Positions 22,408 through 57,307 of a DNA stretch of 64,000 nt are shown here, piece by piece. Origin of the DNA: a virus; IMG/VR virus record IMGVR_UViG_3300022661_000003, one strand, 5' to 3'. Numbering within the stretch: position 1 is the stretch's first letter; the number at the start of each line of letters is the position of its first letter. Made by a program: the position numbers and the translations under genes. A model generated the notes under the pieces. The model ran no database searches. It was given only the letters and a program-made list of their open reading frames with translations, and was not told the DNA's origin.

Positions 22408-25400
22408 ATGGGCATTATGGATTCTCCAGTAAGATTTTTCAAAGGCTCTAAATCTGCCATTGACAATTTTTAGGGAATTGAAGATGGAAGATTGTTTTTT
22501 GCGACAGATACAAAATAGATAATGCTTGACTGTAATTTTACAGACAGCGAAGCAAATAACTATAATAAGAGAATTACTTTTGGTGGGTCTACTGGTATTC
22601 ACTATGCAAATCGCACTTTCACAGAAGATGAAATTGCAGCTGATTTGTATGTCTTTTCCATTTTAGATGGTCATATCGATCAAGAAGGAGAAGAACTTCC
22701 TGAGATTGATGATCTAATTTTGAACGTAAAAGATGGCTCATTTTATCGTGTCACAAGACGAGATGAAACAGAGCTTACTGTAGAAGCTACTAAATTGACA
22801 ATTTCCGGTTCTGGTGGCGGCGGTGGAACCGATGGTGGCGGTGGATATATTTCACGTACGCTATTATCTGATCGTACCTTATATGCCACTAAAACTTCTG
22901 CGAATATTCAAATGAAATATACTTGTTATTCTACTGCAGATGGCGCAAGTATTCGTGCTACAGTGTATGTTGGTACGGGCAGTGGCAGAAAACAAGTTGA
23001 TTATTTCCCAGAAGTTAGCCAAGAAGAACCCAATATCGTTAACATTGCGGAATATATGTCTACTTTAAAATTGAATGCCGCCAACACAATTACCATTCAA
23101 TTAGAAGATGATTATGAAAATTCCATTTCAGTATCTTGTACTGTATATGTTTATGATATGTATGTTACTCTTGTTGGTAGTAGCATGATTTTACCCCAAG
23201 AGAACGATTTTACTTTCCAGGTTCGTCCATATGGAGGCCAAGAATTATCTAATCGCGCATTAGTATATGAATTGCGTCAAGCAGGTAGTGATTCTGTTAT
23301 TGCGAAAGAAATTGAATATACCACTGCTGACAATGGCTCTTCTGCGAATAAAACTATTAAAAAGCAAGAGCATGGCGAATATACTTTAACTGTATATTTA
23401 CAAGGTTAGATTCCTAAATCTGAAGAGTATTTAACTTCTCCTCCTATTCAAATCGAAATTCCATTTTATAATGCGAATGCTTCTTCTCCTCTAATTACTG
23501 CCACTTCAGGTATTACTTCTGCCACACAGTACGATAAAATTAAAATCGATTACATGATTACATATGGAGCAACAAGTACTTCATACGTTAAATTGTTAGC
23601 AGAATATGATGAAGGCTTTGGCTCTCGCGTAGTCGGAGAAGAAATGATTGTTGAAATCAATAATAAGGAATTCTATAATTGGAATGTAACTTTTGATAAA
23701 GCTGCAACTTATTATTTATCAATTATTTATTTGGATTCAAACCAAAATGAAACCGATTATGCCAAAATCTTTACTCCAATTATTGTTGAATCTTTTGATG
23801 AAGAAGTTCCAGTAATCAATACTGCTGATCCATCATTAATGTTATACTTCACCTCTAAAGGTAAGTCTAATAATAGCCAAGATAAAGATACTTGGGTTTC
23901 TAAGTATTATGGTGGAGAAGTAAAAGCACAATTTTCTAACTTTAACTGGAACACTAATGGTTGGATTGAAGGCCCAGACGGTTTAGGTTTACATCTTACC
24001 AATGGCGCAAAAGTAGTTATTCCTTATTCTCCATTTAAACCTGATAGTAACGGTTTGGGTGCAGAAAATTTAGGTCGTACTATTGAATTAGATTTCAAGA
24101 TTTCTAATGTGCGCGATGAAATGGCTCCTGGTATTCAATGCCGTTCTTACTATACAGCTGAATTAGATGATGGCACCAAAGAAGAAATTACCCAAGTAGG
24201 TTTTTAGATTTATGGTAATAAGAGTCAGATGAACTCTGCTTAGGTAAAATCTAAAATTACTGATATGAGTGGATGGACTACGATGTTCAAAGCAGGAACA
24301 CGTATTCATTTAACCTATGTTATTAATAGTGTAAATGATACTCCTCCTCGTATTTTTTATACTTTCTTAAATGGTGTTACTTCTTCTCTATCTGCTTATA
24401 CAGAAACAGACCAATTTATTGACTTATCTGAAGATAAAGATAAAAATATTTTCGATTCTGAATTTATTTTTGATTCTTCATATATGGATATTGATATTTA
24501 TTCAATTAGAGTTTATCAATCTTCATTGAGACCAAATGATGTTCTTCGTAACTGCATCGCAGATAAATCTTCTGCTACTGACGCAGCAGCAGAATGGAAA
24601 TAGAATGATGTTTTAACTACCTTCGAAGATAGAACAACTGGTATTGACCTTGAAGAAGTTATAAAGCTTGGCAATATTCCTTATATGGTATTTTATGATG
24701 GTCGTGATACCGGTAGTAAGAAAGATGAAGGCTGGGAAGACCCTGATTTTGAAGACGGCGAATTCCCGACTTCTGATGAATCTAGATTGCCAACTGGTAA
24801 AAAGGACTTCCGTCACATGGAAATGTATTATGTTGACCCAATTCGTGGTGAAAAATATAATATTGGTACTCCTGATAGTCCAGTAATTGTTACTTGCTAC
24901 GCTCAAGGTACTTCCTCTCTGGAATATCCTGTCAAGAACTTGCGTATTTATTTCCGCAAGAAGGATGACGGCAATCACCCGAATCAAATTGCTAAATATT
25001 CTTTAGAAGATAAACTTCCCGCTGTTAACTTGTTTACTTTAAAAGCAGACTACATGGAATCTGCTAGTGCTCATAATACTGGTACTGCTAATATTTTGGA
25101 TGAACTTTATAATTCAATTGGATTAAAGAGTCCTGCTGCGGCAGCTTATCCAGATAATAGAATTGTAACTGCGATTTTGGGACATCCTATTGTTTGTTTC
25201 TATAAGCCATATAAAGCAAGTGCAGAATTCCCGGATCGTTATCAATATATAGGTCGTTATAATTTTAATTTAGATAAAGCTACTCATGAATTATTCGGTT
25301 TTGAATCCGAAATGGAGGCATATGGTTCCCAGAAGAAACCTTGGGGCTATTTACAGAATGCGGATGGCTCTTTAAGAGACGGTTTTAATACAGCTCTTGA

Positions 25401-28400
25401 ATTTACCGATGGAAAAGTATATTATTCTGAACCTAACTTAGAATCCACTAAAATTGAATTCACTCAAGCTACAGAAGAAGACCGCGAAAAGGCATTTGGT
25501 AAGCAAGCTGCTATTGGCCCAATGTATGAATATAAGAGCGCAGAAGAAGGCGTTACTTGTGTTCAATGTTGGGAGTTCTTAAATAATACTAGTCCATTAG
25601 TTGGATTTAGAGAATATTGGGATGAAGAAGTAGATAAAGTTGAAATAACTCATAAAGATGATACCGGAAAAACTGTAGTAGATCATGCTCCTTATGCTGA
25701 CTGGACAGGCGCTTTTGAATCTCGTTATCCAGAACATGAAGAGGAAGCTTCAACTGATAAACGTACTTTAGCAAGAATGTTAAACTGGGTTGCATCTACT
25801 AATAGACATCCTGACGTTGTAGCAAAAGAATTAGCAGAACAGGGAAAAGATACTTCTCCTGAAGCTATTAAAGCAGAACAAGAAGCCAGATTAAATAAAT
25901 TTAATTTAGAATTTGCTGAATATTTTGTTCCAGATTTTGTTGCTTTCTATTATGTCATTACAGAGTTTCTTCTTATGATTGACTCTCGTGCTAAGAACAT
26001 GATGATGGCATGTTTTGATGCCGATCCAGAAAATAATACTGGACATTGGATGCCTATTTTCTATGATATGGACACAATGCTTGGTGTTGATAACTCTGGT
26101 AACTTACGTTTCCCATATAGCCAAGAGGATAATCAACTTGATACTTTTAATGCCGCAGGTACTTATGATGCTACTCAATATAGTGTATTGTGGTGTAATT
26201 ATCGAGATGCTCGTTTTGGCGATATTAAAGCTATGTATCAAAAATTACGCAAAGGTGGAGTATTTAATTATAATCGTCTTTTAAGAGCTTATAACGCTGA
26301 TCAAGCAGACGCTTGGCAAGAAGTTTATATTAACGAAGACGCCGATTATAAATACATTGATCCTCTTGTTAGCGGATATGAAGTTTGGTTCGATCCAGAA
26401 GGCAATATTATTACTGCTGAAGAAGCAGCAAAAATTGAAGGCGCTAAGAAGAAGAGTGCTGCAAACTATTTATATGCCGCTCAAGGTACTCGTTCGCAGC
26501 ATCGTAATTATTGGTTAGAAAAGCGCTTTAATTATTTAGATTCTAAATATAATTATTCTCAAGAGGTATTAGGCTCTTCTGCAGGTTCTGGTTTGAACTT
26601 CCGTTTGAATTCTGACCTAGCACAAGGCGCAGGTAAGCCCAAGTTCTCTGGTGACTTTGATTTCATTTCATTAGCAGACCAATATGTAACTGTTGACTAT
26701 GCTCAAGGAAATATTGTTGGTCCTGTTCGAATTTATGCAAATCAGCCTTATCATGTTGATAGTCCTTTTGAGACATCGACTGACCAAGAAATGTATATCT
26801 ATGGTCTTGATGATATTGTTGAACTGGGTGACCTTTCTACCAAATACTTTAATAAGTTCCAGTTAAATAAGGCAACAAAATTACGTAAATTAATTCTTGG
26901 TTCTCACGAAGGTAATTTCAGTAATCCGAACCTTGGTACGGCAAATATTTTTAATATTGGTGAGAAGGGAGCAAATGTTCCATTCCTAGAGGAAATTAAT
27001 ATTGAAAATTGTTCCGGTATTAAAGATGCTTTGGATTTGTCTGCTTGTCCTTATTTACAAAAAGTATATGCAAAAGGCTCAGCAATTACTACTGTAAATT
27101 TCTATCCCGGTGGAAACTTATAGCACATAGAATTGCCATCTTCCACTACTGCTCTCTCCTTGAACGGCCAATTGTTCTTTAATACTAAAGATCATCCTGA
27201 AAATTTGAGCATTGAGAGCTATCGTAGATTAGCAAAAATGCATATTACTAATTGTCCTCTTGTTGATTCTAAGACTTTGTTTAAGAATACTATTTATACT
27301 GCTAGTTCAGGTAATGATGTTAGCTCTCTTTTAAATATTCGCTTAGATGATTTAGATTGGACTTTTGACGTAGATGAATGCGTATTTAAAGATAATGTTT
27401 TAACTAATATTCCACTATTAGATATTTTGGTCACTTTAAATGGTCTAAATACTGCAGGTAACAATATTACAAGAGCAGATATGAATAATGACTATTTGGC
27501 AGGAACTATCACTATTCTTAATGGCAATAATTATGGTATTAATGAATTGACACTATATGAAAAGTATAGTATTTTATTCCCTAATTTACAATTTAAGTAT
27601 ACAGAAAATAATTATTGTACAAAAGCCTATTCTATTAATATTAATAATGCTCAATCACAAATTCTTTATTCTTATTCAAAGAAAATTAAAGCTACTGATA
27701 TTGCTACATATAGTGAGAATTTAGAATCTTGGTTCACTCCAGTTGTTTTAGAGTATAATGAGATTGTAGATGAAGTAACAGGTGAAGTTTCTCGTGTTCC
27801 AAAAAATTATGACGAAACAAATCATTTGCCTCCTCTTGTAAAACAATCTACAGCACAGTATATTTATGATTTCCGTGGCTGGGGATTAGAGAAGCCATTA
27901 GATTTCTCTGAACGTGATTATACTTCTGACGAGAGAGAACAAGCTATTGCAGATTCTCTCGCAATTAAAGTATCTTATACTATTGATGAAGATAATAATT
28001 ATACCTATACCGCAGAAAAAGTTAATGGTTTTGAATTGAACATAGATGCATTTGGTACTGACCAAGAAATTAATTTTTATCCAGTTTACGCCGCAGATTT
28101 GAACACTCATATTGTTCGTTTCTACGATGGTATAAATAGTGAGCCATTAAAGGTTGAGCGTGTAAAATATGGTTAGTCAGCGACTCCTCCTCAGAATCCG
28201 CAGAAACTTGAATTGCCCGAAAACGATAAGACAGTTGCTTACTCTTATCCTTTTATTGGTTATAATCTTCCTTACGACAATATTGTTATGGAGCTTAATA
28301 CCATCGCCCAATATGGTACAAAGAAACCTTTATCCAAAATGACAGGCGATGAAATTAGTCGAGATTACTTCAAACCTGCGAGTGTTAGTGAAGGTGTAGA

Positions 28401-29405
28401 TTATCTTACCAGTGATGAAATCGCTATTGGTATTAAACCTGACTTTGCAGACGAGGCTATTATTATTCCTTCTACTTATGACGGAAAACCTGTTGGTCTA
28501 GTTAGAGTAGAGTATGGCGACTAGCAACCTAAGAACTTACGTCGTATTTTCTTCGAAGAAGGAAATACAATTAAGGTTATCGGCAATAATTTTATGGCAG
28601 AAAACAAGAATATTGAATTCTGTGATTTGTCTGCTCTTGGCTCATTATCACTTATCGGTATTCAAGCTTTTATGAATTGTTTTAATTTAACATTTAAGTC
28701 ACTGCCGAATAGCGTTACAAAAATTGACACTAATGCTTTTGCTTATTGCTCTTCAATTAATTTTTCTGCTTTACCTGATAAGTTAGAATCATTAGGTCCT
28801 AATGCATTTAGGTCTTGTGAATCTTTAGGAGAAATTACAATTAATAATACTTAGCTCACACAAATCCCTGATTACGCTTTTGAACGTTGTACTAATCTTA
28901 AGATCAAGGGCGAAACTATCAATTGTTTAGTTACTACAATTGGTTAGTATTCATTTGATTATTGTAGTAATTTAGTTTTGAATTTTGATATTGATTCTAC
29001 TAATAGACTATCTACAATTAAAGATTTTGGCTTCGGTCATACTCCAATGTTAAATATCAATAATTTCCCAAGCAATCTTACTTCTATCGGCACTTCAGGT
29101 ATGAGTTCTGTAAATGGTGCTGGAGGCTTGTTGACAGCTAATGTAATTCCTAAGACTGTTACCTCAATCGGTGGTGGCGCATTTATGTTTAGAAAATTGG
29201 CAGATGAAAATCTTGGTATCCTTATTATCGAAAATCCAAATATTATTTTAGCAGATAGTGCTTTCTCATATTTGTCAGGGGTAAAGGAAATTTGGGTTCC
29301 AAAATCTGTTGATTTAAATAGTGCTCCTTGGAATTCTGAAACTTGTTTTGGATGTACTCAATCCTCTCCTGGTGTTATTATAAAACACAATCCTAATGGC
29401 TAATG
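22408..29405 (+). CDS. Giant mosaic receptor-binding protein (~2330 aa): fibre N-terminal domain, TAG-free CotH-like core (24685-27123), then BspA-type leucine-rich repeats; TAG recoded
   Basis: Track ORFs 22522, 23554, 24265, 24685, 27133, 28213, 28594, 28978 are all in frame 1. No TAA or TGA occurs in that frame until TAA at ~29403. The RBS AAAAAGGAGGACTCTAA precedes the ATG. A CotH-like motif SRAKNMMMACFDADPENNTGHWMPIFYDMDTMLGVDNSGNL is present. C-terminal repeats have the BspA-LRR pattern (IPKTVTSIGGGAF, NAFAYCSSIN). Confidence 0.55.
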
Positions 29406-33953: not shown

Positions 33954-34214
33954 ATGGCTCATAAAATATTGATAGGTAATGATGGAACTTACGGGTCTCC
34001 TGTTACACATTCAGATTTTGTATTTTTTGATGATGGTGAAAGCCTTACTGAAAAAATGGATGTGTATAATATTTATATTAATGATTTAATGTATCCTGTG
34101 GGTCGTATTCTTGAAACCACAGGAAATTTTAATCCAAATGGGCATTATCCTGGTGTGTGGCGTTTATTAGAAAAAAATCATACTGTCATTAGTGCGGGTT
34201 CAATTGCATTATAG
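33954..34214 (+). CDS. Small protein (86 aa), likely N-terminal partner of the collar-domain proteins
   Basis: Intact track ORF with an AAAAGGAG RBS. Confidence 0.45.
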   Translation: MAHKILIGNDGTYGSPVTHSDFVFFDDGESLTEKMDVYNIYINDLMYPVGRILETTGNFNPNGHYPGVWRLLEKNHTVISAGSIAL

Positions 34215-34232
34215 GGGAAGAAAGAAAGTCCT

Positions 34233-35066
34233 ATGGAATTATTTCTTCCTGATGGATCAGTATGGGATTTAATTTATCATCATGAAATTGCAGGTGGATA
34301 TTGGGCATCCACTGCCGATTGCTTAGATTTTGATTTAAATGCTACAAAACAAAAATTTGGAAAAATGAAATATGTAAATAATTATTATAATGCCAATGAT
34401 ACATTAGAATTTTTAATGGTATATAATGTTCCTTATGGAGGCGGAGTCTCTGGTGCAGTAACTAATATGGGGCGTTGGGTACAGCATGCTTCTCCTTTTT
34501 CGGCAGGTAATGCCCATAGGTCCGCGGCATGGGATAAACCTGCTACTGTTGATGGTTATAATGCAACAACCACATTTACGGCGGCAGATGGTACGATTGT
34601 TACAAATACCGATATTAATGCTGGTTTATATGTACCATGGACGGCACATAATTGGACTGGTTTAAGTCTTTCTCGTCCTAGTAATGCATATTTTGCAGGT
34701 AATCACTATGGGACTGGATGGTTTTATGCTATTGGTTCAAAAGCTGCTTATGAAGGTGGTATACCTGCACACATTACGGCAACTGCTTGTACTTTGTATG
34801 TCAGAAAAGATAATGCGGTATTAGCAAATTTAGAAAATGGTGGTTATGAGTATGGTGAAGAGCAACATCTTTTGACAGTAGATGAAATGGCTTATCACGA
34901 TCATCGTTTATATTATACAAAAACTGGTAATTTTACTAATTCGGCATCTGATAATGGGTAGCATTAGGCTCCTGATAATTATTATACTGGTCCTCGTGGT
35001 GGTTCACAAGCTCATAATAATATGTAGCCTTCAATTTATGTAAATTTATGGGAAAGAATATCATAA
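34233..35066 (+). CDS. Phage tail-collar-domain protein (HxH motif), TAG recoded
   Basis: Track ORF 34233..34961 continues through three TAGs to TAA. Carries LTVDEMAYHDHRL and a C-terminal GGSQAHNNM motif typical of Phage_tail_collar proteins. Confidence 0.5.
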
Positions 35067-35080
35067 AGGGGGTATATTAA

Positions 35081-35593
35081 ATGGAGTATGTACCAGTAGT
35101 AGAATTAGAACAAACTGATTTAACAGTTTTACCAGATAGTATTAGCTATTATGAAAATTATATTTTAAAATAGTTAGATGATGTATTATTACAATATACA
35201 AACTCATCTAATTTATTAAATTATCATTATCCAGTAGGCTCTATTATTGAAGTGCTTAAAGCAGATTATGATCCTAATGGACAATTGCCAGGAGTATGGA
35301 CAAGATTTGGAGAAGGCCGTACTATGATTAGCACTGGTGGAGATAATTCATTATTAGAAACTTCTATTGGAACTTTTAAGCATTTATTAACTATAGATCA
35401 AATACCTTCTCATACTCATAGATTAGGATGGAATAATGAAGAATCTCGTTAGCGTCGTGCTTCTTCTTGGACTGAAATTTGCTAGGGTTCAGGCTATAAT
35501 GAAAGTTATATTACTATGTCTACTGGTGGAGGCGCAGCGCATAATAATGTTTAGCCGTACATTGTAACATTTAGTTGGAAGAGGGTGTCTTAA
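35081..35593 (+). CDS. Phage tail-collar-domain protein paralogue
   Basis: Frame 2 with track ORF 35252..35452. Carries LTIDQIPSHTHRL and GGGAAHNNV. The TAA overlaps the next ATG. Confidence 0.5.
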
Positions 35594-36162
35594 TGGCCAC
35601 CGTAAAAAATTATATTTTAAATGTTAATGATCAAAAAGTATATCCTAAAATTAAAGCGTCTCAAGTTTATATTCCTAGTTTAAATATGTCTTTAGAAGAG
35701 TATTATGGCAATGAGACTTTAACATTTTAGGACTATATTGATTTAATTTTGCCTATTGGTTTTATTTATAAAACTACTCGAGAAATTGATTTAAATAATT
35801 TTAATTTTGATAATTAGTCAGTGCATTGGTTTTGGGAACAATTGGAAGCAGGACATATTTTAGTTGGAGAGGGTTCTTATACTGATAGTAACAGCGAAAC
35901 AGCGACTTTTTATCCTCTTGGTACTGAAACTGAAAATGCACTAACAGGTGAATGGCGTCATACATTAACCGTAGATGAAATTCCTTCTCATAATCATGGT
36001 TTGCCTAAAGATGGTTCTGATGATGGAGAAAATTATTATGACGTAGGAGATTCTCGGACTTCAGCAGTATCAGCTTTTTATACAGGAGGTACTGGTGGTT
36101 CCACCCCTCATAATAATATGATGCCAGCAAAAACAGTTTATATGTATCGAAGGGTGGTATAA
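35593..36162 (+). CDS. Phage tail-collar-domain protein paralogue
   Basis: Frame 1 with track ORF 35821..36162. Carries LTVDEIPSHNHGL and GGSTPHNNMMPAKTVYMY. Confidence 0.5.
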
Positions 36163-36377
36163 CATATGGCAGCAAGTACAATCACACAAGATGAATTGCA
36201 AAAATTTTGGAATGCTTTTAAATTAGAATTGGAAGCTTCTGCCCTAAAACCTTATGATACAATTTTATTTAAAGATTAGGGTAATAATGCAATTCATAGT
36301 ATGTAGTTTATTGATGGAGTAGTTACTTCTCAAGAGCAAACTACAAATTAAAATAATGGTAGAAAAGAGGCTTCAAT

Positions 36378-36908
36378 ATGGTTTTAAATCAAGATGGTTT
36401 AAGATTATTGTGGCAAATAATTTAGGCTGAAATTGATAAATCTAAAAATTCTTCTATTGTAGACGGAATTTATTTTAGAGATCAAGAAAATGGATATACA
36501 TATTTATTAGAATTTATCAATGGAAATTTAGTATCTAGTGGTAAAGCAGTTTCTATTTATGTGACTTTAACCATACCTAGCGATGTTTTATTTATCAAGG
36601 GAGAAATAGTGGATCCATCTTATTATTAGATTATTGCTCGTTGTGAAGATGGAAGTGAAAAAATTCTTAAAGGATGTGATATAAGTACAATTCAAAGTAA
36701 TGGTACTGTTTCAGTCTCTTATGAAGAAATGGGTACAATTTATACTGATACCATTAATCTTTCATCTTATAATTTTGTGGATAGTATTACTACCGCTTTA
36801 AAAGATTTTACTTATAATACTAATGCAGATGGTACATATACATTAAAAGATTACATAGGAACAAGTACGACCTTGACAATTCCAAATAATTATGCTATAA
36901 TTTTATAA
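36378..36908 (+). CDS. Hypothetical structural protein (~176 aa, 2 TAG)
   Basis: AAAAGAGG RBS then ATG. Frame 0 ends at TAA ~36906. Confidence 0.4.
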
Positions 36909-36921
36909 AGGAGGGTAAAAA

Positions 36922-39528
36922 GTGGCTAGACTATTAAATTTTAGAAATGAACCATAGGTTACAGCGATTACTATTCCTAATCGTATTTAGTTATCAGATA
37001 CAAATTTTGCTCAAGCTTTTCGAAATATGGCTAATTTACAATCAGTTACTATTACTCATCCTAATATTACAATTTTAGATTAGGCATTTGAAAATGACAA
37101 AGCATTACAAACATGTACATTTCCAGAACATAATAAAATTACATCTATGTATCGTGCATTTAATGGGTGTTCTAATATGACTAGTGCTCCTTAGAGTGGA
37201 GCAGAAGTTATTAATATGGCTTATGCATATTATAATTGCTATTCTATGACTGGTAATGCTCAATGTGGTCCTAAAGTTTTTAGTATGTCTCATGCATATA
37301 CTAATTGTAGTAATATTTCAGGCCCAGCAGCTTGTTCTAATAGTGTTCGCAATTTTGATTATGCTTATCATAATTGTACTAAATTAACTGCTGCGGCATG
37401 TGGCGCAAATGTTACTAATATGGATTATGCTTATTATAATTGTACTAATTTAACTACTGCGGTGTGTGGATTAAATGTACCAACTATGAATTATACATAT
37501 TATAAATGTTCTAAATTAACTGATGCTGTATGTGATCGTAATGTTGTAAGTATGAATTATACATATGCTTATTGCACTAATCTTACTACAGCTAACGTAG
37601 GACGTAATGTTACAGAATTAAAATCAACATATAGAAATTGTATTAAATTAACTGATGCTGTTTGCGGTCCTAATGTTATAGAGATGGTTAATACATATGA
37701 AAACTGCACTAATTTAACTACAGCCGCATGTGGAAATTAGGTTACTTATATGAATGGTACATATGCTAATTGTCATAAATTAGTTACTCCTATATGTGGA
37801 CCAATGGTAACTTTAATGGATCACACTTATAGTAGTATGAGTTAGAGCTCATTATAGACGAATAGTGGTTCATATATATATATAAATAAGCGTTATTATC
37901 ATGGTACAGGTTGTAAAAATTTAACTACTGCAGTATGTGGTGAACGAGTAACAAATATGTATTATACATATGCTAGTTGTGCAAATATTACAACAGCAAT
38001 TTGTGGAGACCAAGTTACTGAAATGATTGGTACTTATGGTAATTGTGTTAATTTAACAACTGCTGCTTGTGGACCATCTGTAACCTTGATGGATTCTACA
38101 TATTCTATTCCTTATGGTTTTTATGCTAGTGGCCGTTATAAAAATAATAATGGCATTCCAGGAATTTTATATTCAGAAGAAACTGGTACAATCGGTGATA
38201 CCTGGTATGGATGTTCAAGTTTAACCGAAGCAGTTTGTGGAGATTCAGTAGTAATGATGGTTAATACATATCGTGAATGTACTAATTTAACCACTGCAGC
38301 AAGTGGTCCTGTTGTTACTTTAATGGATAACACTTATACTAATTGTTTTGTTCCCGCAGTTGTTCCTGATAATAGTCTAACAGCGTATAATCTTTACTCT
38401 GATGGATTAGGTTTAGTAACACCTATTTGTGGACCATTAGTTCAAGAAATGAGATATACTTATGCTAATTGTCAATCTTTAACATCATTTGTTTGTGGAG
38501 CAGAAGTAAAAATAATGGATCATACTTATGCTTTGGCCGAATCAGACTACTCTGATTGGTTCCTTGGCGATGAAACATATACCATAACTGAAAATAGAAC
38601 TGCAAAATGGAGACAATCGGTTAGTGCAAAACGTGGGCCAACTACTCCAGTATGTGGCGCAAATGTTACAGATATGATAGGTACATATAAAGGCCGACAT
38701 AGTTTAACTTCTGCGGTATGTGGTGCTAATGTAGTAAATATGATTGAAACTTATGCTGGATGCGCATATTATATTTCTAAAATGATAGAATATTATAATG
38801 CAACTTGGGCTTCAGGCGAAGATCCAGATTATGACACATATAATTATTCAATGGATTATCTGAATTATTCTTCTGGCATTACTACTGCAGTATGTGGAGC
38901 AAATGTAATAAATATGCATGGTGCATATATGTATTGTAGCGGTATTACAAATAAAGCAGCTTGTGGAGCAAACGTAGTGGATATGTCTTATGCTTATGCT
39001 TATTGCGGAAGAGAAAATTATTTCTTTAACGGCAAATCTGGCGTAGATACATATGGTTATGGTGGTTTGAACACTCCAGTTGTTGGTGCGAATGTAGTTA
39101 ATATGCAAGGTGCATATATGGATTGTTATCCTATTGGTACCGCAAAATGTGGTGCAAATGTTGAAGATATGTCTTGGGCCTATTATAATTGTAGAAGTTT
39201 AACGACTGGTGTATCAGGCGCAAATGTTACTAATATGAGTTATACTTATGGTTATTGTCTAAGCTTGAAGGGTAATTTAAATATTGCATCTGAATATGTA
39301 TATGATGCTTATGGTATTTTTGAAGGTCGAGGATATAATATTGCTGGAGATGAAATTACTCCAACCTTATTAAACATTCGAGTGCCTTATGGTTCTACTA
39401 CTTTTGATTCTTTTTATAATGAAGATTTATGCGGAGAAGGTAGAATTGTTTGGGACACAGAAGATGATACAGGAACAACTTGGACCTGTACAAATACTCG
39501 TTATAATTTAAAATTAATCGGAGCTTAA
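36922..39528 (+). CDS. Cys-rich LRR-like repeat protein (~869 aa): BspA-like N-terminus then >20 tandem ~22-aa repeats with consensus NVxxMxxTYxxCxNLTxAxCG
   Basis: Track ORFs 37216 and 37957 are in frame 1 with GTG 36922 (AGGAGGGTAAAAA RBS), joined by TAGs. The repeats are obvious at nucleotide level. A (TA)6 microsatellite sits inside the gene at ~37872-37885. Confidence 0.55.
37872..37885 (+). repeat. (TA)n dinucleotide microsatellite inside a coding region
   Basis: catatatatatataaa lies within the repeat-protein gene. Confidence 0.6.
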
Positions 39529-39554
39529 GACAATAGAGAAAAAGGAGATTTTTT

Positions 39555-40604
39555 ATGAAAAAATATAATCGTAATATTGATATTATTATTCCTGCTTATA
39601 ATGTAGCAGATAATATTTTGTTTAGATGTCTGGCTAGTATCGCTTGCCAAGATATTATTTCTGAATTAGAGGTTACTATTGTTGATGATGCTTCTACAGA
39701 ATAGAATTATCAAAATGTAATTAATTAGTTTTCTTCAATGTTAAAAATTAATATTTTACGCTACGAAACTAATGGTGGACCAGGAGTAGCTCGTCAATAT
39801 GGTTTAGATCACACTTCTAATGGATATATTACTTTTATTGACGCTGATGATACTTTCAATGGTGCTTTTGCTCTTAAAGCTTTGCGCAATGCTATTGAAA
39901 TGAATAATGGTTTATATCAAATGTCAGTTGGAGTTTTTGATGAAGTACATGAAACAGACATTCCTGAAGGAACTGGACCAATGTTAATGAGCCACGAAAA
40001 AGATTTAGTATGGATGTTCGGTAAAATGTATCGTCGTAGCTTTATTGACAAATATGGTATTCATTTTCATGAGACTTCAAGAGCCAATGAAGATAATGGA
40101 TTTAATACTTGGTGCCGCCTTTGCATGAATGATAAAGAGTAGATTAACTTTATTGCTGCACATGTTTATTATTGGCATGAAAATTTAAATAGTATTACGA
40201 GAATTAATGATCATCAATATAGTTATGGTAGTTCAGATCGAGATAGTTTTTACGGTTATGTTGAAAATATGATTTTTGCAATTCAAGAGGCAAAAAAGAA
40301 AAATCCTTACAATGGTTTTATTACTATGTGGGCTGTAACTTGTATGATACATTTATATCAATATTATATTGAATGTGCTGCAAGAGCTCCGCAACATGCT
40401 CCAGGTAATTTAAAACAATGTAAAAAATATTATGATGCAATTTTTAAAGAACTTGAACCTACAATTTCAAAAGAAATTATGGCATAGCATTATAATGATA
40501 TAATGAAAAATGCTTATATGGGAGATAAGTTAAATAATATTATTCCTTGTATAGGTTTATATGAGTTTTTAGATAAATTAAAGGAGGAAAATACAGATGG
40601 CTGA
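39555..40604 (+). CDS. Family-2 glycosyltransferase (~349 aa), TAG recoded
   Basis: AAGGAG RBS. Carries IIIPAYN...VDDAST and FIDADD motifs (GT2 DxD). Track ORFs 39738 and 40269 are in frame 0 joined by TAGs. The TGA overlaps the next ATG. Confidence 0.7.
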
Positions 40605-41277
40605 CGCTTATAAAATTTATACTTCTAGCTTAGTTGGTATTCAAGATGGTGGTACTGACGGCAGTACTGCAGCAGAAGCTAGAGAAAATTTAAATGTAGT
40701 TGGTTATACTGTTGTTCCCGAACTCAGTGGAGGCTCAGATTTTGCCTCCACTGAATTTTTACCAATAGCTGGTGGAACGATGACAGGACCGCTTACTTTA
40801 GAAGCTGATTTAATTGGTATTGACGGTGACTTTTCTGGTACTTTAAGCGCTTCAAGTGTAAAAGGTGCGGTATGGAATGATTATGCCGAATATCGTATTT
40901 TAAATGGTAAAAATGAAGCTGGCAGATGCGTAATTGAAACAGGCAATGATGATTTAATTTGGTCTCATGAACGCATGTTACCAGGAGCTATGATTATTTC
41001 CGATACTTTTGGATTTTCTATAGGAGAGACAGAAAAAGCTACTGCTCCAATTGCTGTGGCTGGTAGAGTATTAGCATATCCTAATGAAGATCGTTCTACA
41101 TATAAAGCGGGCGACGCAGTATGTTCTGGTCCTTATGGTACTGTTTCTAAAATGTCTAGAAAAGAAATTATGATGTATCCAGAACGTATTATTGGTATCG
41201 TTTCTTGCGTTCCTACTTATGAAATTTGGAATGATAAAATTCAAGTTAATGGTCGCATTTGGATAAAAATAAAATAA
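40597..41277 (+). CDS. Tail fibre-like protein (226 aa), TAG-free
   Basis: Intact track ORF. Fibre-like segments TAAEARENLNVVGY and GGTMTGPLTL. Confidence 0.55.
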   Translation: MADAYKIYTSSLVGIQDGGTDGSTAAEARENLNVVGYTVVPELSGGSDFASTEFLPIAGGTMTGPLTLEADLIGIDGDFSGTLSASSVKGAVWNDYAEYRILNGKNEAGRCVIETGNDDLIWSHERMLPGAMIISDTFGFSIGETEKATAPIAVAGRVLAYPNEDRSTYKAGDAVCSGPYGTVSKMSRKEIMMYPERIIGIVSCVPTYEIWNDKIQVNGRIWIKIK

Positions 41278-41291
41278 AGGAGGTATTTATT

Positions 41292-41630
41292 ATGAAATTA
41301 ATTATTCAAGGACAAGAGCAATATCCAATTAAAATTAATAAATATCATCGTAATTTTATGAAAGTACATACTTATGCAGGCGCAGTTAATTTTGAATTAG
41401 AAATAGATAATGAACTTGAAAAAAATATATAGTTTTTGCAAGCATTATATGGTTAGAGTAAATAGATTGAGCAAATTCAGGTATTTAGTGATAAAGACAT
41501 GTTAATTGCATTTTTAGTTTTTGAAAATGGTTATATTAGTAATTTGACTGATTCAATTAACGAAAAAGGCAAGCGAACTGTTTTGTTTACTATTACTTTT
41601 GAAAGTCTTAATCCTATGATTTTTTCTTGA
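41292..41630 (+). CDS. Hypothetical protein (~112 aa, 3 TAG)
   Basis: AAGGAGG RBS. Ends at TGA. Confidence 0.4.
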
Positions 41631-41660
41631 CTTTTAAAAAAAAATATGGTATTATTTTAA
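41626..41660 (+). promoter_or_regulatory. Sigma-70/SigA-like promoter (TTGACT-17-TATTAT with an upstream TG) driving the radical-SAM operon
   Basis: TTGACTtttaaaaaaaaatatggTATTAT lies ~20 nt upstream of the AAAAGGAGGG RBS of gene 41678. Confidence 0.5.
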
Positions 41661-41677
41661 AGAAAAGGAGGGTTATA

Positions 41678-42193
41678 ATGGCTCAAATACTTTTCGATGA
41701 TTACCTTGCTGCAAAAACAGCGGTATATAATATGTGGGATGAAGTGTTTGGAATTAAAATTAATTGGAATTTATTTGCTACTGACACTTAGGCCAATAGT
41801 CGTAGATCAGAAAATACATATGATGAAGCAGATAAAGAAGAACATACAGTACCATCTGAAGTTGCTGTATTTCCAGACGAGCGTACCGAAACAAATATTA
41901 AGCCGCTAAATTAGGCATATCGTTTTAACGAAATTAATAGTGCAGAAAAAAATGGTAAAATTACTGCCGACGCAGTAAATGCTTTATATAATTTAATGCA
42001 GGTTGCAGAAGAAGAAGCTCATAGTGGCGCTGGTTATGGAGCAGATAAAACTACACACTGGTAGACTTATAATAGCTCTAAAAATACTTCAGTAAAAACA
42101 TCTTAGTATAGTGGTTATGACTCATATAATAGTAATCGACATTCTGGTTGGTGTACCGGTCGTAATTCTAGTAATATGGGAACCAACTGGTAA
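41678..42193 (+). CDS. Precursor-like protein A1 (~171 aa) with a Tyr/Ser/Asn-rich C-terminal tail
   Basis: Strong AAAAGGAGGG RBS. Four in-frame TAG. The C-terminus ...HW(Q)TYNSSKNTSVKTS(Q)YSGYDSYNSNRHSGWCTGRNSSNMGTNW is paralogous to that of the 42208 gene. Confidence 0.5.
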
Positions 42194-42207
42194 GGAGAGT
42201 ATTAATA

Positions 42208-42507
42208 ATGGCGTATAATTGGAATAATATGTTTGGAACTATAGTTGAAAAAGATTAGTCAATAAAGCATGAAAATAGTTTAAACCATATTATAGAAACA
42301 GCTACAGAGTATCTAGAATACCATTGTTCAGCTCATAATACAGAAAAATTTGCTTCTTGGGATGTAACTTATAATGGTACATTGAAGTCTAGTCATGATT
42401 CAACTTATAAAAGTTATAATTCTTATAATAGCGGCAAGTTAAGTACAAATTATTCTGGATATAATAGTAGTCATAGGTATTCTTATTTTGGAGGAAATGT
42501 AGGATAA
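42208..42507 (+). CDS. Precursor-like protein A2 (~99 aa), shortened paralogue of A1 with a Tyr/Ser/Asn-rich tail
   Basis: The N-terminus YNWNNMFG matches YNMWDEVFG in A1. The tail is SWDVTYNGTLKSSHDSTYKSYNSYNSGKLSTNYSGYNSSHRYSYFGG. The TAA overlaps the ATG of the next gene. Confidence 0.5.
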
Positions 42508-43883
42508 TGGATTACGAGAAAAAGGCGTTAGAACATTGTGTATCACTTTCATTGCATTGGTCTTCTGATTGTAATATGGCATGTTAGTATTGTTATATTG
42601 AAAAAGATAAAAAAGCAATGGCAACCTATAATAAAGCATTACGAGAAGCTTTAGAAAATGGTACATATGTTAATAATATAAAAAATAAATTTGAACATAT
42701 TAAAGATAATATTGAAAATTTAAGTTTGTGGGGTGCAGAACCTACAATTAATGGTATATATTTTAAAGATACTATTTATCAATGCTTAGATTTTTTTCCA
42801 AATGTACATTCTTTAATGTTTTCGACAAATGCATTGTTAGGTGCAGATATTATTTACGAACAATTTTATTTACCTTTATTAAGTTATGCAGAAACTAATT
42901 CACGTCCTCTTACTTTTGAATTACAGCTAAGTTTAGATGGTCCTCCTGAATTTAATGATAAATCACGTCATGAAGGAGCCACTAAAAATACTTTAAATAC
43001 TTTATATACTTTACTTGAAAGAACTCCATTTAATTGTAAATATTTTAAATTTAGCGTTTCTACTAAAGCCACTCTTGATATTAGTTATATGAGAGAAATG
43101 GTTGAAGGTGGAATAGAAAAATTTTAGTGGTATTATGATTTCATGAATGAAATTCATGGAAAAGCACATGATATTATTAAAAATAATTCTACAGTTAGTG
43201 ATTGTCATGTATTTGGAATACCTACATTAGTAGATCCAGGATATTATACAGTTGAAGATGGTAAAATATTTGCAAAATGGATATCAATGTTAAAATATGT
43301 AGACCGTAGTAAATGGCATGAGGCAAGTCAACATGTACCATTGTTTTATTAGTGTTTAAATACTGTTCTCGAAGCAGAAAACATACACAATCCTATTGCT
43401 TAGGGATATAATTATTTTTCTTGTTCTTCCGGAAAATATAATTATAGTGTTGATTATGATGGTACAATATATACTTGTAATCGTTTATGTCGAAATGCAG
43501 CTTTATCAGATAATTTAAAATATAAAGGATCTATGCTTTCTAACTCTAATGTGGATCATCCTGCTGGCTCAAAATGGTTAAAACGTAATTATGCTAATTG
43601 GGTTTTTCATGAAGATATTGTAGCTCGAAAAAATTTTTTAGATGCATTAATTTTTATGATGGCTAAAGCTGGCTAGATTGATAAATTATATATTGAAAAT
43701 GATGAAGCTCGATTAATAATGTTTTATATGATGAGCGGTATTTATTGTCATATAGGAGCAGAAGAAGATTATACAAGTAATCCTTTTATTCCTCCTGCTA
43801 GTTATTTGCGCTTATTGGGAAATGGAGCTCAATAGGAGTTGGAAAATTATTTTAAATTAGAAAGAGTAAGAGGAGTTTTGTAA
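42507..43883 (+). CDS. Radical SAM / SPASM-domain enzyme B1 (~459 aa, 5-6 in-frame TAG)
   Basis: N-terminal CNMAC(Q)YC matches the CxxxCxxC radical-SAM cluster motif. LWGAEPT is GGEP-like. C-terminal Cys cluster CSSGKYNYSVDYDGTIYTCNRLCRN is SPASM/twitch-like. Track ORFs 42618 and 43143 share frame 0. Confidence 0.6.
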
Positions 43884-45253
43884 TGGAAAATTGTATTATT
43901 AATACTACTGGTTTAGAAGCTTATCAATATGAAAATTAGAAATTGGCAGACAATTTTTTAGAAACATATTTTTTCTCTAATTTTAAATATAGTCATACAG
44001 CTTCTAAAAAATCTTTAGAGTTAATTATTTCTCCCAAATGTAATTTAGGATGTAAATATTGCTATATTCATAAACATAAAAAACATATTTTTAATGAAGA
44101 TATTTTTAATGAAGAATTAACATTAAAAAATTTAACTTTAATTTTAAAATGGCTTGAAAAAAATGAATTTAATCCAGATTTAGATATTTTTTCAGGAGAA
44201 TTATTTGCTTAGGAAATTGGTCTAAAAATTTTACAAGTAATTTATGATCATGAGTTACATTTGCCTGAACATTTAAGATGCAAAGTTATAACAATTCCTA
44301 CAAATTTTACTTTTTTAAATTCTGATACATTGACAGAAAAAATCACTAATTTTCAAAAATAGTTTGAACAAATTAATATCCATTTATTTTTAAGTGCGAG
44401 TTTTGATGGAGCTCATATGGAACAAAATCGTCCTTATACCAAGACATTAGATTTTGATATTAATACCTCTCGCGATGATGAATATTATAATAAAGTTTTT
44501 CAATATTGTAGTGAACATCAATATGGATTACATCCAATGATTTACAGTAAAAATATTGCTAAATGGAAAGAAAATTTCTTATGGTTCCAAGAAAAAATGG
44601 AACAATTTAATATTCCTTGGGAAAATTTATATTTACTTAATGTTCGCAATGAAGAATGGGACGATGTCAGTTTAAAAGAATATTATAATTTTATTTTGTT
44701 CTTATATGATTGGGTATACCAAAAAGTTGGATGTAACACAGAATATTTAGTAAATTTTATTCTAAAAGCACACGGTTTTAATATAATGGCTAGTCCTTTA
44801 ACTCGAGTAGGAAGAGGCTTAACTTGTGGTTTATAGAATACTTTATGCGTTCGACTTAGTGATTTAATGGTTTATCCTTGCCACAGGACAGGATATGAAC
44901 ATTATTATTGTGGATAGTTCATAGAAGATGAGGATAAAATTTTAACATATAAAAATAAAAATGCTGAATTGCTAATTACAGTATATTCTGTTAACAAAGA
45001 AGGAATGCCCATGTGCTCTCAATGTCCTATTAATAAATTATGTGTAGGACAATGTTTAGGAGCTTGTCATGAAAGTAATAACAATTTATTTGTACCAATT
45101 CCTTCCGTTTGTGCTACCGTATATACATTATTAGCAGCAACTATTGAAGGTCTAACTAAATATCAAGCTTATGATTTACTGTTATCTCAAGTTGATGCTT
45201 CAATAGCAAAGCAATTAGAGTTTGTGAAAAAGGAGTTAAATAATGTTAAATAA
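43883..45253 (+). CDS. Radical SAM / SPASM-domain enzyme B2 (~456 aa, ~6 in-frame TAG)
   Basis: SPKCNLGCKYCY matches the CxxxCxxC motif. The C-terminal CSQCPINKLCVGQCLGAC matches SPASM. Track ORFs 43943, 44417, 44969 are in frame 2. The start overlaps the B1 stop (TAATG). Confidence 0.6.
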
Positions 45254-45821
45254 TTTTGTAAAAATGACTTATGGCGAAGCTCGTCATGAAGTATTAAAAG
45301 AATTAGATAATAGAGGTCCAATTGGTAGTTTTTTATTATCTCGCCATCCAGACTTGACAAATATAATTGAATATGTTTGTCGTTATTTAGAAAAAGCAAT
45401 GACTCCTGATAGTGATCCTAAAGATTTAGGAAATTTTCCGAGTAATATTAAAACTAGTTTGGAATTTTTAACTTTAAGATTTCCATCTTATTTAATTTTA
45501 TATTCAGAACATGATTGGAATTGCTTTTGCAGCGCATTATTCTTATTGTTAGATAATTTTTTAAATGCTGGTGAAACTTTCATTAATTCTGTTGCCGAAG
45601 ATGATTGGTCTAAAGAAGAAAAAAAATATATCAATCGTATTCGAGAATAGCTCAGTGCGATATTAAGAATTATCGATATCGGTGCTGGTTATAGTGAATT
45701 ATGTAAAGCTTCTGCTTAGATTGTAGAAGAATTAAAAACTTGGTCTCAATCTCGTCCTGCGGCGTTTAAATTATCTGAAGCATATTTAAAATCTCTTGGA
45801 ATCGGAGGAACAGAGGAATGA
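45243..45821 (+). CDS. Hypothetical protein (~192 aa, 2 TAG), rSAM operon member
   Basis: Track ORF 45243..45650 is extended through TAG to TGA ~45819, overlapping the next ATG. Confidence 0.4.
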
Positions 45822-46117
45822 CTTTATATTTTAATAATGAACGTGAACATCCTATTGAGGTTCAAAATGTATCTCGTGAATTAATTGCAGATGCTAACGG
45901 AAAATATTAGATTTTTGTACGCATTATTGTAAATGAAAGATTTAATGACGTTATTGCTTATTGTAATTCTTATGCATCACAAGATATTGTAAGTATGGAG
46001 CTATATAATGGAGAAGAATTAACTAATCATTATACACTAAATGCTGGTAGAGTAAATTCTATTCATGAAGTTGTAGAAAGTACTTCTCAAGAAGTCACAA
46101 TGATTATTGAATATTAA
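45818..46117 (+). CDS. Hypothetical protein (~99 aa, 1 TAG), last gene of the rSAM operon
   Basis: ATGA overlap with the previous gene. Followed by a hairpin at ~46122-46150. Confidence 0.4.
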
Positions 46118-46121
46118 TAAT

Positions 46122-46150
46122 TAGGCGATGTTTTTTAACATCGCCTAAAT
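46122..46150 (+). terminator. Stem-loop, putative operon terminator
   Basis: AGGCGATGTTTTTTAACATCGCCT perfect hairpin. The downstream U-run is weak. Confidence 0.45.
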
Positions 46151-52440: not shown

Positions 52441-52974
52441 TTAATCCCATTCGATGGCATTATTTTGTTGAATTACCTCACTATATCCAATACAAATAGC
52501 ATCTGCTTCATCCTAAATACATTTAACGCCATAAGTATCAAGCACCCATTGCTAAGCAACTTTCTTTTGATTTTCTCTATGCTTGTCGTTGCCGGCGAGG
52601 AATTTACAATTTTTACGCCATTCACTTGGATATACTAATTTATATGGAACTTGCTTTTGAATACAAACTCTCATAATAGCACCTTGAACTTGTGCTAGTT
52701 TCTAAAAGGTTTGAACATTGCCTTCTCGGTTGCCGATTTGCTGTAGCTAAATATTTTCAATAAGGACGATGTCTGGCTCGTCATCATCTATTTTGTTCTC
52801 AATTTCCTAACAAAGGTTATTGATACGAATAGCTACGTCGTCAGCCGTGTGCGACCAATGCCCAAAAGATTTTAATTCTCCATTCTCAAAAAAAGACCAG
52901 CCACTCACACGAGTGGACTGGTCTAATGCTAAAATTTTATTTTTCTTATTCACTTGTCGAACCAAATCCGCCAT
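52441..52974 (-). CDS. ruvC: RuvC-like Holliday-junction resolvase (~175 aa) with 5 in-frame TAG
   Basis: Hand translation of the minus strand gives KILALDQSTRVSGWSFF... and a C-terminal (Q)DEADAICIGY motif. The TAG in that motif sits at a position where Gln is typical in RuvC (QADAADAL, recalled from memory). No TAG-free ORF exists here in the track. Confidence 0.6.
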
Positions 52975-53530: not shown

Positions 53531-53750
53531 AAATCACTCTTACCTGACTAGTAGGTTCCTTCTCTTGATTTACAATTTTCTTTACCTTAACAACCTGATA
53601 TTCTTCTTCGGTTTTCTTGTTAAATTTAGTAGTATAAGAGAAACTCTGAAGCTCATATTCCATAGCCTCGTTCATTTCGTCTCGCATTGCGAGAGCTTCT
53701 TCAACAGTGTCTACACGATAAGTTTCTACAACATTCAAAAGACTCTTCAT
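53520..53750 (-). CDS. Small hypothetical protein (76 aa)
   Basis: Intact track ORF, translationally coupled (overlaps) with dut and the upstream gene. Confidence 0.45.
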   Translation of the reverse strand: MKSLLNVVETYRVDTVEEALAMRDEMNEAMEYELQSFSYTTKFNKKTEEEYQVVKVKKIVNQEKEPTSQVRVIYEY

Positions 53751-53753
53751 TCG

Positions 53754-54498: not shown

Positions 54499-54533
54499 AA
54501 AGAATACTCCTTTTTCTCATTTTCTACATTATA

Positions 54534-55022: not shown

Positions 55023-55053
55023 GTTTCTTTCTCCTTTAAAGAAGGCTAATTTC

Positions 55054-57264: not shown

Positions 57265-57307
57265 GTATTTTACCTCCGATAATAAAAAGTGGATAATCCA
57301 TAATATT

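Follow-up and report, generated by a model that had tools for sequence, protein, structure and literature searches.

A conserved gene pair for a double-cysteine leucine-rich repeat protein and a predicted TarP-type glycosyltransferase in a phage that reads TAG as glutamine

A stretch of viral DNA of 64,000 nucleotides (IMG/VR record IMGVR_UViG_3300022661_000003; the whole stretch is called the window below) holds, at positions 36922 to 40604 of its plus strand, a gene for a leucine-rich repeat (LRR) protein and, behind it, a gene for a family 2 glycosyltransferase (GT2). The locus raises the question of whether the two genes belong together, and if so, on what the enzyme might act. Our analysis revealed that the LRR gene followed by the GT2 gene is a conserved, directional gene pair across phages in which no other similarity to the window is detectable, and that this phage uses genetic code 15, in which TAG encodes Gln. 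Both the linkage and the recoding were absent from a preliminary description of the locus, which was made from the sequence alone and proposed a phase-variation switch inside the repeat gene. Over 13.5 kb, every base of the window agrees with the JGI contig Ga0187901_10000038 (3300019378; 168,640 bp), and 64 of the ~168 kb of the phage genome were examined. In the GenBank phage collection, no match was obtained for 18 kb of sequence (megablast) or for the LRR protein (tblastn).

Genetic code and conservation of the gene pair

The two genes and their in-frame TAG codons, as read from the translation with TAG as a sense codon, are as follows.

36922..39528, plus strand: gene of the LRR protein, from a GTG start to the TAA stop at 39526-39528 (868 aa), ribosome-binding site AAGGAGGG upstream
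36955, 36988, 37081, 37192, 37738, 37843 and 37855, plus strand: the seven in-frame TAG codons of the LRR gene
39555..40604, plus strand: GT2 glycosyltransferase gene, 349 aa, ATG start, ribosome-binding site AAGGAG, TGA stop at 40602-40604
39702, 39726, 40140 and 40485, plus strand: the four in-frame TAG codons of the GT2 gene

Under the standard bacterial code, the region 36922-40604 yields only fragments of 174, 523, 134 and 72 aa, and the JGI annotation splits the LRR gene into pieces of 174, 31 and 523 aa. When TAG is read as sense, two complete genes appear with exactly the boundaries listed above; the preliminary description had given the outer boundaries (36922 and 40604) correctly, but they hold only with TAG reassigned to Gln, which it omitted. 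Across the window, the summed length of open reading frames (ORFs) increases from 17,773 aa with the standard code to 25,723 aa with TAG as sense, while the number of ORFs is unchanged, and a compact array of plus-strand genes from 48 to 51836 is exposed. In the alignment with the standard-code orthologues from loci L001 and L002, an invariant Gln stands opposite three of the four TAG codons of GT2, and the close relative L073 is TAG-recoded in the same way. The TAG codons are denser in the plus-strand block of structural, fibre and lysis genes than in the minus-strand replication block (9.5 versus 3.7 per 1000 aa), which is the pattern reported for code-15 gut phages (10.1101/2021.08.26.457843; PMC9523058). 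Unlike in those phages, the tRNA scan detected no tRNA gene, hence no suppressor tRNA, within the 64-kb window. All protein-level claims on both genes depend on the recoding, since both frames are broken under the standard code; for the same reason, the fragmentation of both genes by standard-code gene calling, the LRR-GT2 module is invisible to routine annotation. Elsewhere in the window, the genes free of TAG include Pol III alpha (57924-61775) and 17784-19016, and two giant ORFs exist only when TAG is sense (48-6026, plus strand, 1,992 aa, 34 TAG; 22408-29403, plus strand, 2,331 aa, 11 TAG).

The LRR gene and the GT2 gene are separated by 26 nt without an intervening terminator, and the TGA stop of GT2 and the ATG of the next gene (40597) lie in an 8-nt overlap. 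The conservation of this arrangement was analyzed in both directions. In the forward test, a scan of IMG/VR with GT2 gave 52 loci, and 80 loci were collected overall. In all 14 IMG/VR loci with a GT2 at least 74% identical to that of the window, an LRR ORF of the type with two cysteines per repeat (double-Cys) lies directly upstream on the same strand, in about six distinct architectures. Where GT2 is 44-49% identical, most loci have an LRR gene of the single-Cys DUF285 type one to three genes upstream, and an LRR gene was also found in many loci with 33-42% identity, several of them missed by the motif regex. At other low-identity loci, the genes around GT2 are unrelated to LRR genes and encode, for instance, a collagen-like fibre, a helicase or a ribonucleotide reductase (RNR) activase. 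In the reverse test, which started from seven independently found LRR homologues, GT2 was directly downstream in five, 3.1 kb upstream in one, and absent within 5 kb in one. Of the window genes, only three have homologues in the standard-code loci L001 and L002/L003 (70 and 248 kb, respectively), with their order kept: a domain like that of the small upstream gene g36378, the LRR protein (35-40%) and GT2 (74-76%).

The gene g36378 stands immediately before the pair.

36378..36908, plus strand: g36378, 176 aa, two in-frame TAG codons, no Pfam or PHROG match

By tblastn, the g36378-like domain was identified in 12 loci (48% identity in L073; 32-37% in L001/L018, L002/L003/L011/L012 and L006-L010) and was not found in L005 or L013-L017. 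It is usual before the LRR gene in the high-identity GT2 clade, where the upstream sequence is long enough. That g36378 might be the split-off N-terminal fibre domain of fused homologues was considered and rejected (BLASTP E 0.99).

Three standard-code relatives (L080, L074 and L079) have one to three LRR/DUF285 genes, encoding up to 2,605 aa, before a single GT2, and in L080 (9274-11209) an NTP_transferase gene (sugar-nucleotidyltransferase) follows GT2. The gene for the terminase large subunit lies 1-3 kb beyond the cassette in these three loci, which places the cassette at the end of the structural module.

The repeat protein and its cysteines

The LRR protein matches the Pfam family LRR_5 (PF13306, BspA type) with 67.6 bits (E-value 1.3e-18, cut-off 27.7) in three stretches, the best of which covers aa 124-243. 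There was no match to PHROG or NCBIfam models, and none to PF03382 (DUF285) at E<=0.01, although several of its homologues do match PF03382. A large protein database contains 1,057 homologues, and the close ones are long proteins (700-1,470 aa) made of the same double-Cys repeat unit. Four features of the gene bear on the repeats and on the tract within them.

37063..39288, plus strand: repeat array of 26 units, aa 48-789, anchored on V-x-x-M-x-x-x-Y, from the unit table and segmentation with a hidden Markov model
37357..37580, plus strand: DNA-level tandem repeat, 66-bp period, 2.7-3.4 copies, 76-81% matches (Tandem Repeats Finder)
37834..37908, plus strand: lineage-specific loop insertion of 25 residues, SMSQSSLQTNSGSYIYINKRYYHGT, inside one repeat unit, in which two TAG codons lie together with the (TA)6 tract
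37873..37884, plus strand: (TA)6 microsatellite, in frame, encoding YIYI, the longest dinucleotide tract and the only (TA)n with n>=6 in the window

Chance is far from explaining the repeat array. It begins with two N-terminal BspA-like units with a single Cys and continues with double-Cys units of 22 or 23 aa, with the consensus NVxxMxxxYxxCxNLTxAxCG, in which position 12 is Cys in 100% of the units and positions 2, 5 and 9 are conserved at 90-95%. The preliminary description, which had counted more than 20 consecutive 22-aa repeats, had the consensus right and is borne out by the 26 units, but only 14 of these are exactly 22 aa long, some of them in an unbroken run over aa 141-294; five are 23-24 aa, and the remaining seven carry loop insertions of 18-36 residues. 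Likewise, its two cysteines per repeat are present in 17 of the 26 units and not in the other nine. Its two or three N-x-T tripeptides per repeat did not stand: two or more occur in just three units and at least one in 17, even though sequons are enriched in the protein as a whole (26 observed, 14.6±3.1 in composition shuffles). The 66-bp DNA repeat points to recent duplication of repeat units.

The fold was analyzed with an AlphaFold2 model of aa 346-868, made on P0001, which is the exact fragment of the window protein. The model has a mean pLDDT (the per-residue confidence of the prediction) of 82.5 and a pTM (its global counterpart) of 0.83, with repeat cores above 90 and inserted loops below 50. 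The best structural matches in the Protein Data Bank (PDB) are solenoids of the BspA/TpLRR type, namely 4FS7 (8e-6), 4H09, PcpA 4CP6, 4GT6 and TpLRR 6MLX, with TM-scores of only 0.3-0.5, owing to loops and curvature. Together with the LRR_5 match, these structural matches confirm the initial assignment to BspA-like LRRs. The protein shares with BspA/TpLRR proteins (4FS7, 4H09, 4CP6, 6MLX) and DUF285 proteins the period of 22-23 residues, the V-x-x-(M/I)-x-x-x-(F/Y)-x-x-C-x-x-L core, the NVTNM motif typical of DUF285 and a predicted solenoid, and its N-terminal units keep the canonical 'IP' and 'AF..C'. It differs from these bacterial surface proteins in being encoded by a phage within a tail-fibre block, and in having no signal peptide and no lipobox; it also lacks a transmembrane segment. 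The repeat period at the NVTNM motif is 22 in the window protein and 23-24 in the single-Cys phage relatives that are associated with GT2. The named DUF285 surface-protein repeat has a period of about 26 residues.

The main array departs from the canonical BspA unit, which has a single Cys, 'I/L/F-P' and Phe. Its units have two cysteines, 'C-G' in place of 'I/L-P', and Tyr in place of Phe, and 'IP' is retained only in the N-terminal units. The homologues fall into two sub-variants, a 22-mer (...C-x-N-L-T-T-A-V-C-G) and a 23-mer (...C-x-N-L-T-G-S-P-V-C-G), and in the homologue columns of both the second Cys is conserved at 90-98% and the following Gly at 93-94%. In the distant single-Cys relatives of the DUF285 type, the position of the second Cys is occupied by I/L/F (65/26/6%) and that of the Gly by Pro (85%), while position 9 is Phe in these relatives and Tyr in the double-Cys clade. 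By these alignments the second Cys is a conserved family trait of the double-Cys clade. The finding that the preliminary description had named as its refutation, ordinary BspA LRRs with unconserved Cys in the homologues, was therefore not obtained.

Because the second Cys takes a core hydrophobic position of the relatives, it suggests a second buried ladder of cysteines, like that of Listeria InlJ (3BZ5, whose PDB title names a cysteine ladder). An exposed or disulfide-forming second Cys seems less likely from the alignment, and the disulfide ladder proposed earlier is doubtful, as the residue replaces the core Ile/Leu/Phe of single-Cys relatives. InlJ resembles the window protein in having Cys at a consensus hydrophobic LRR position in successive repeats; it belongs to another LRR subtype and comes only at rank 19 of the structural matches, with a weak E of 0.076, and for the window protein two ladders per repeat are proposed. 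The InlJ reference, Bublitz et al. 2008, is listed in PMC9525666.

The (TA)6 tract that the preliminary description had reported at about 37872 is real, lying in frame within the coding region, and a slip of one unit in either direction leads to an immediate TAA and a product of 321 aa. It had been read as the switch of a phase-variable adhesin, in which slippage would decide which phages of a population make the LRR protein in full length. The truncation at residue 321, the rank of the tract as the longest of its kind in the window, and a 523-aa ORF with an ATG start beginning 73 nt downstream agree with such a switch, but we consider it highly improbable, because the tract sits in the 25-residue loop, over which the closest orthologues (P0004 and P0005) have an exact gap in the alignment and an ordinary 22-mer unit, because no (TA)n with n>=5 and no long homopolymer occurs in any of nine orthologous LRR genes, the closest relative included, and because ~0.1 such tracts are expected per 64 kb by chance (order-2 Markov model), which makes it mildly unexpected and not significant. 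Six units are also short for dinucleotide contingency loci. Most likely, (TA)6 is an incidental feature of a recent loop insertion. The 523-aa fragment P0001 is indexed in 26 blocks of the collection, and the 24 contigs that were read, which mostly share neighbouring proteins, are uninformative on tract length. A variable-gap pattern anchored on the flanks of the tract matched nothing among the viral and metagenome contigs searched, and a plain 30-mer nothing among the metagenome contigs, in collections that do not include the source contig.

The fibre block and the acceptor of the glycosyltransferase

The gene downstream of the LRR gene had been called a GT2 in the preliminary description, and the call is supported by the Pfam match to Glycos_transf_2 (PF00535; 68.9 bits, cut-off 23.3, E-value 6.7e-19), by a model with a GT-A fold and by the catalytic motifs.

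39840..39851, plus strand: D96-A-D98-D99, DxD-type motif for metal and nucleotide-sugar, invariant in 47 orthologues and aligned with DSDD of 5TZE (TarS)
40089..40094, plus strand: E179-D180, likely catalytic-base position, within SRANEDNGFN (175-184), invariant in 47 orthologues and aligned with ED of 5TZE

In TarS, the Asp of the ED pair is the catalytic base. The best PDB sequence matches of GT2 are 5TZE/5TZ8, titled as S. aureus TarS. The structure was modelled on P0121, a proxy 81% identical to GT2 (pLDDT 80.7), and consists of a GT-A domain followed by a C-terminal region of five helices. In the Foldseek search with this model, PDB ranks 1-43 are occupied only by chains of TarP, TarS and RmlT, over ~345 columns (E 4e-15 to 1e-11), with TM-scores of 0.55-0.62 and ~17% identity; the fold search against BFVD returned only unannotated phage glycosyltransferases. 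No transmembrane segment was detected in GT2 (maximum 19-residue Kyte-Doolittle score 1.38), and its pI is 5.3. The PHROG family 'GtrB-like O-antigen conversion' matches GT2 at 6.7e-11, over aa 7-197 only, which is the GT-A part, and since GT2 has no transmembrane segment, this label reflects the GT-A domain alone. There are 2,207 homologous proteins at E<=1e-10, and the top 120 clusters at 90% identity are all 75-81% identical to GT2. By these features, GT2 is predicted to be soluble, catalytically intact and of the TarP/TarS/RmlT type.

TarP (prophage-encoded) and TarS of S. aureus and RmlT of L. monocytogenes are all wall-teichoic-acid glycosyltransferases, and they resemble GT2 in combining GT-A with a helical C-terminal region, in the DxD motif and the E-D pair, and in solubility. 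In comparison with them, the window enzyme is only ~17% identical, and its 349 aa equal the length of the construct used for the TarS crystals (1-349). GtrB sits in the membrane by C-terminal transmembrane helices and works with GtrA and GtrC. Unlike it, GT2 lacks such a segment and has no Gtr partner genes nearby, its neighbours being fibre genes.

Between the window and L073, the flanking genes are 81-97% identical, whereas the block 33954-41277 is only 31-54% identical (31.5% for the LRR protein), with GT2 as the exception at 82%. A divergent block with one conserved gene is what characterises a host-range module that diversifies around an enzyme under constraint. The block begins with three tandem paralogues at 33954-36162 (plus strand; 370, 170 and 195 aa), which end in a T4 Gp10_C-like domain and have PHROG matches to tail and tail-fibre families, and which belong to the hypervariable fibre block, as they are 40-46% identical to their counterparts in L073. 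The Gp10_C-like domain of these paralogues has a conserved H-x-H motif (MAYHDHRL, IPSHTHRL, IPSHNHGL). From this context, with which its lack of a signal peptide agrees, the LRR protein most likely belongs to the virion, as a distal part of the fibre or a component that binds the receptor, and the adhesin-like role first suggested for it fits its place in the hypervariable block, the genomic context being its basis.

Three further features frame the transcription unit.

36873..36901, plus strand: TG-extended consensus promoter of the sigma-70/sigma-A type (TTGACA-17-TATAAT), 12/12 match, 20 nt before the LRR start
40597..41277, plus strand: downstream gene, 226 aa, no TAG, 54% identical in L073, no Pfam or PHROG match
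46121..46148, plus strand: first strong intrinsic-terminator-like hairpin, 12-bp stem, bidirectional

The N-terminus of the 40597..41277 product presumably resembles that of a fibre protein. Perfect TG-extended consensus promoters occur twice in the window (~0.17 expected per 64 kb). The one at 36873-36901 is kept at the same place in L073, despite an identity of no more than 48% in the coding sequence that it overlaps, whereas the standard-code phages lack it. Between 36901 and 46121, only weak terminator candidates of 5-7 bp were found. A predicted host-type consensus promoter ahead of TAG-gated genes suggests that transcription and translation are controlled separately. The second perfect promoter, at ~54556-54528 (minus strand), faces the gene 53995-54498 (minus strand).

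Several features hint at a Gram-positive host, although none proves it: strong Shine-Dalgarno sites, TG-extended promoters of the sigma-A type and, further downstream, an endolysin with PG_binding_1 and C39-like domains (PG_binding_1 ×2 and Peptidase_C39_2), which is accompanied by holin-like small membrane proteins. A further hint of this kind is that the metagenome-assembled genomes (MAGs) to which GT2-bearing contigs are assigned are mostly labelled Bacilli or Clostridia and come from ruminant guts. The labels of the MAGs that include the 94-245-kb contigs with GT2 (L057-L068) are Kiritimatiellae, Bacilli, Clostridia and Tenericutes, the gut samples being those of roe deer, buffalo, yak and goat, and the inconsistency of these labels suggests that phage contigs were mis-binned into bacterial MAGs.

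Taken as a host-recognition cassette of a ~168-kb TAG-to-Gln-recoded phage of the animal gut, the region might work as follows. The LRR protein would be made in the cytoplasm as a solenoid of the BspA/DUF285 type, whose second, core-facing Cys would give a double Cys ladder; it evolves fast and has lineage-specific loops. GT2, which is co-inherited with the LRR gene among many phages that are not related otherwise and is probably coupled in translation to the next gene, would add sugar to a teichoic-acid-like polyol-phosphate polymer in the wall of the presumed Gram-positive host. The modified polymer might be the one used by the LRR fibre, or its neighbour, so that neither the infected cell nor its debris would go on capturing this phage or related ones, as with prophage TarP and with seroconversion genes beside tailspike genes.

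A teichoic-acid-like wall polymer is the acceptor that we tentatively prefer. It has the best structural support, by the full-length matches to TarP, TarS and RmlT. Seroconversion genes stand next to tailspike genes in P22-like gtrABC phages and epsilon15. The linkage of a glycan-modifying enzyme to a receptor-binding protein gene would be shared with gtrABC/epsilon15 seroconversion. TarP itself is a prophage-encoded glycosyltransferase of wall teichoic acid (WTA) that alters phage susceptibility (PMC9650247; also 10.1101/2023.12.21.572611), so a phage-borne enzyme of this type has precedent (PMC9650247).

Several observations weigh against this preference and the fibre role behind it. There is no annotated PHROG family for the LRR protein or its homologues, and PHROG and Pfam scans of multi-domain LRR homologues for tail-fibre domains gave no annotated match. 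With four TAG codons, GT2 would be made only after the code switch, together with the late genes (an argument from 10.1101/2021.08.26.457843). Unlike lysogenic-conversion genes such as TarP, it is TAG-recoded and lies inside a late fibre operon; such late expression is hard to square with lysogenic conversion, and the time left for wall remodelling is short. GT2 also keeps an identity of 75-82% where the LRR and fibre genes have been replaced or have fallen to 31-40%, and an enzyme matched to the receptor might be expected to change along with the fibre genes. Its structural similarity to the WTA enzymes is moderate (the TM-scores and identity given above), GT-A folds are promiscuous in their acceptors, and teichoic acids in the host are a presumption.

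Some of these points are better accommodated if the acceptor is the fibre itself. GT2 would then be a dedicated cytoplasmic protein glycosyltransferase that attaches sugars to the LRR protein, or to fibre proteins assembling with it, before the virion is built; stability against gut proteases or a tuning of adhesion might be the benefit. We consider this possible but doubtful. It gives the best account of the strict gene order, the likely co-expression and the conservation pattern: in the high-identity clade GT2 is always right after the LRR gene, on the same strand and never upstream, often behind several LRR paralogues, and a conserved GT2 beside a diverging LRR surface fits an enzyme that recognises the invariant repeat scaffold. 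Because both genes are TAG-recoded and lie behind a single consensus promoter, without a strong terminator separating them, enzyme and putative substrate would be made together and late (10.1101/2021.08.26.457843), and both proteins are predicted to be cytoplasmic. The sugar-nucleotidyltransferase beside GT2 in L080, and the enrichment of N-x-S/T sequons in the LRR protein, also agree with it. In mycobacteriophage genome papers 'virion glycosylation' recurs, and one of them infers capsid glycosylation from two glycosyltransferase genes. The GT2 clade tracks the repeat type as well (at least 74% identity with double-Cys, 44-49% with single-Cys), but such co-variation is equally expected from simple co-inheritance.

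However, no GT2 known to act on protein ranks high among the structural matches: the WTA enzymes take the top 43, GalT1/CgT comes at rank 49, and the top 50 include no SunS-type enzyme. No acceptor-like motif is specific to the GT2-associated LRR proteins when they are compared with bacterial DUF285 proteins, which also speaks against reading the N-x-T tripeptides as glycosylation sites, and the conserved Thr and Asn are found in the bacterial relatives too and are probably structural. SunS-like S-glycosylation of the repeat cysteines was considered separately and judged unlikely, given the top structural matches and the core positions of both Cys in the folded repeat.

A bolder form of fibre decoration, in which GT2 would be the founding member of a widespread phage system, with a TarP-like GT-A enzyme glycosylating the LRR tail-fibre repeat scaffold in the cytoplasm and the double-Cys repeat having co-evolved with its own GT2 clade, is in our view unlikely. 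If it were true, many uncultured gut and rumen phages would carry sugar-coated LRR fibres from a dedicated two-gene module.

Much less probable is that GT2 glycosylates hydroxymethylated bases of phage DNA, its adjacency to the LRR gene being a historical accident. According to 10.1101/2023.12.21.572611, GT-A DNA glycosyltransferases of phages also have TarP as their best match in PDB and carry R...DDD...ED motifs, and the window GT2 has R80, D96-A-D98-D99 and E179-D180; the phage is large, probably virulent and encodes nucleotide-metabolism genes, and in several loci the terminase lies 1-3 kb downstream of GT2. However, the TarP match obtained here (E 4e-15, full length) is far stronger than the 1e-5 to 1e-6 given for the DNA enzymes in that source. 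In the 64-kb window (of ~168 kb, so that distant genes are possible) no TET/JBP-like dioxygenase, thymidylate-synthase-like hydroxymethylase or C5-methyltransferase was found near GT2, nor were there such genes among the Pfam-called neighbours in seven LRR-homologue loci. The acidic pI of GT2 also argues against a DNA substrate, and the deep conservation of the LRR-to-GT2 order would be left unexplained.

Neighbouring genes and what the pair may mean

Behind the downstream gene, a block of ~5 kb (41259-46117, plus strand) has no counterpart in L073 or in any of the 80 collected loci. It contains two radical SAM/SPASM maturase-like genes (42507-43883 and 43883-45253) with weak NCBIfam matches to PapB ranthipeptide, SCIFF and anaerobic sulfatase maturases, which are preceded by two small ORFs with Ser/Tyr/Asn-rich C-termini (41627-42193 and 42208-42507). 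The block looks like a cassette for ribosomally synthesized and post-translationally modified peptides, or for protein maturation, that was inserted into the phage fibre operon. It was considered as a conserved partner acting on the Cys-rich LRR protein and rejected, owing to its absence from L073 and the 80 loci.

On the minus strand, a nucleotide-metabolism cluster (52946-57958) comprises genes for a dUTPase (52946-53530) and for proteins that resemble an anaerobic RNR activase (54534-55022), an anaerobic RNR (55054-57264; 736 aa, recognised by inspection only) and a guanylate kinase (57308-57958); the presence of anaerobic RNR-like genes is consistent with an anaerobic gut host. A gene of the DAHP-synthase family (61815-62627, minus strand), an unusual auxiliary gene for a phage, sits in the same module of replication and nucleotide metabolism (Pfam DAHP_synth_1, 1.4e-40; NCBIfam 3-deoxy-7-phosphoheptulonate synthase subfamily, 1.1e-63, below cut-off).

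The components of the locus are individually known: the BspA-type LRR, the GT2 and the code-15 phage. In the searched literature, a large subfamily of phage LRR proteins with a second Cys at a core position appears to be undescribed, as does the deep, directional linkage of LRR genes to a highly conserved TarP-like glycosyltransferase. A practical lesson is that standard-code gene calling hides the LRR-GT2 module in routine annotation. If the pair is a host-recognition module, it would offer a handle on host binding by abundant uncultured phages of the ruminant gut, and would help to explain how such phages mask receptors or decorate their own fibres.

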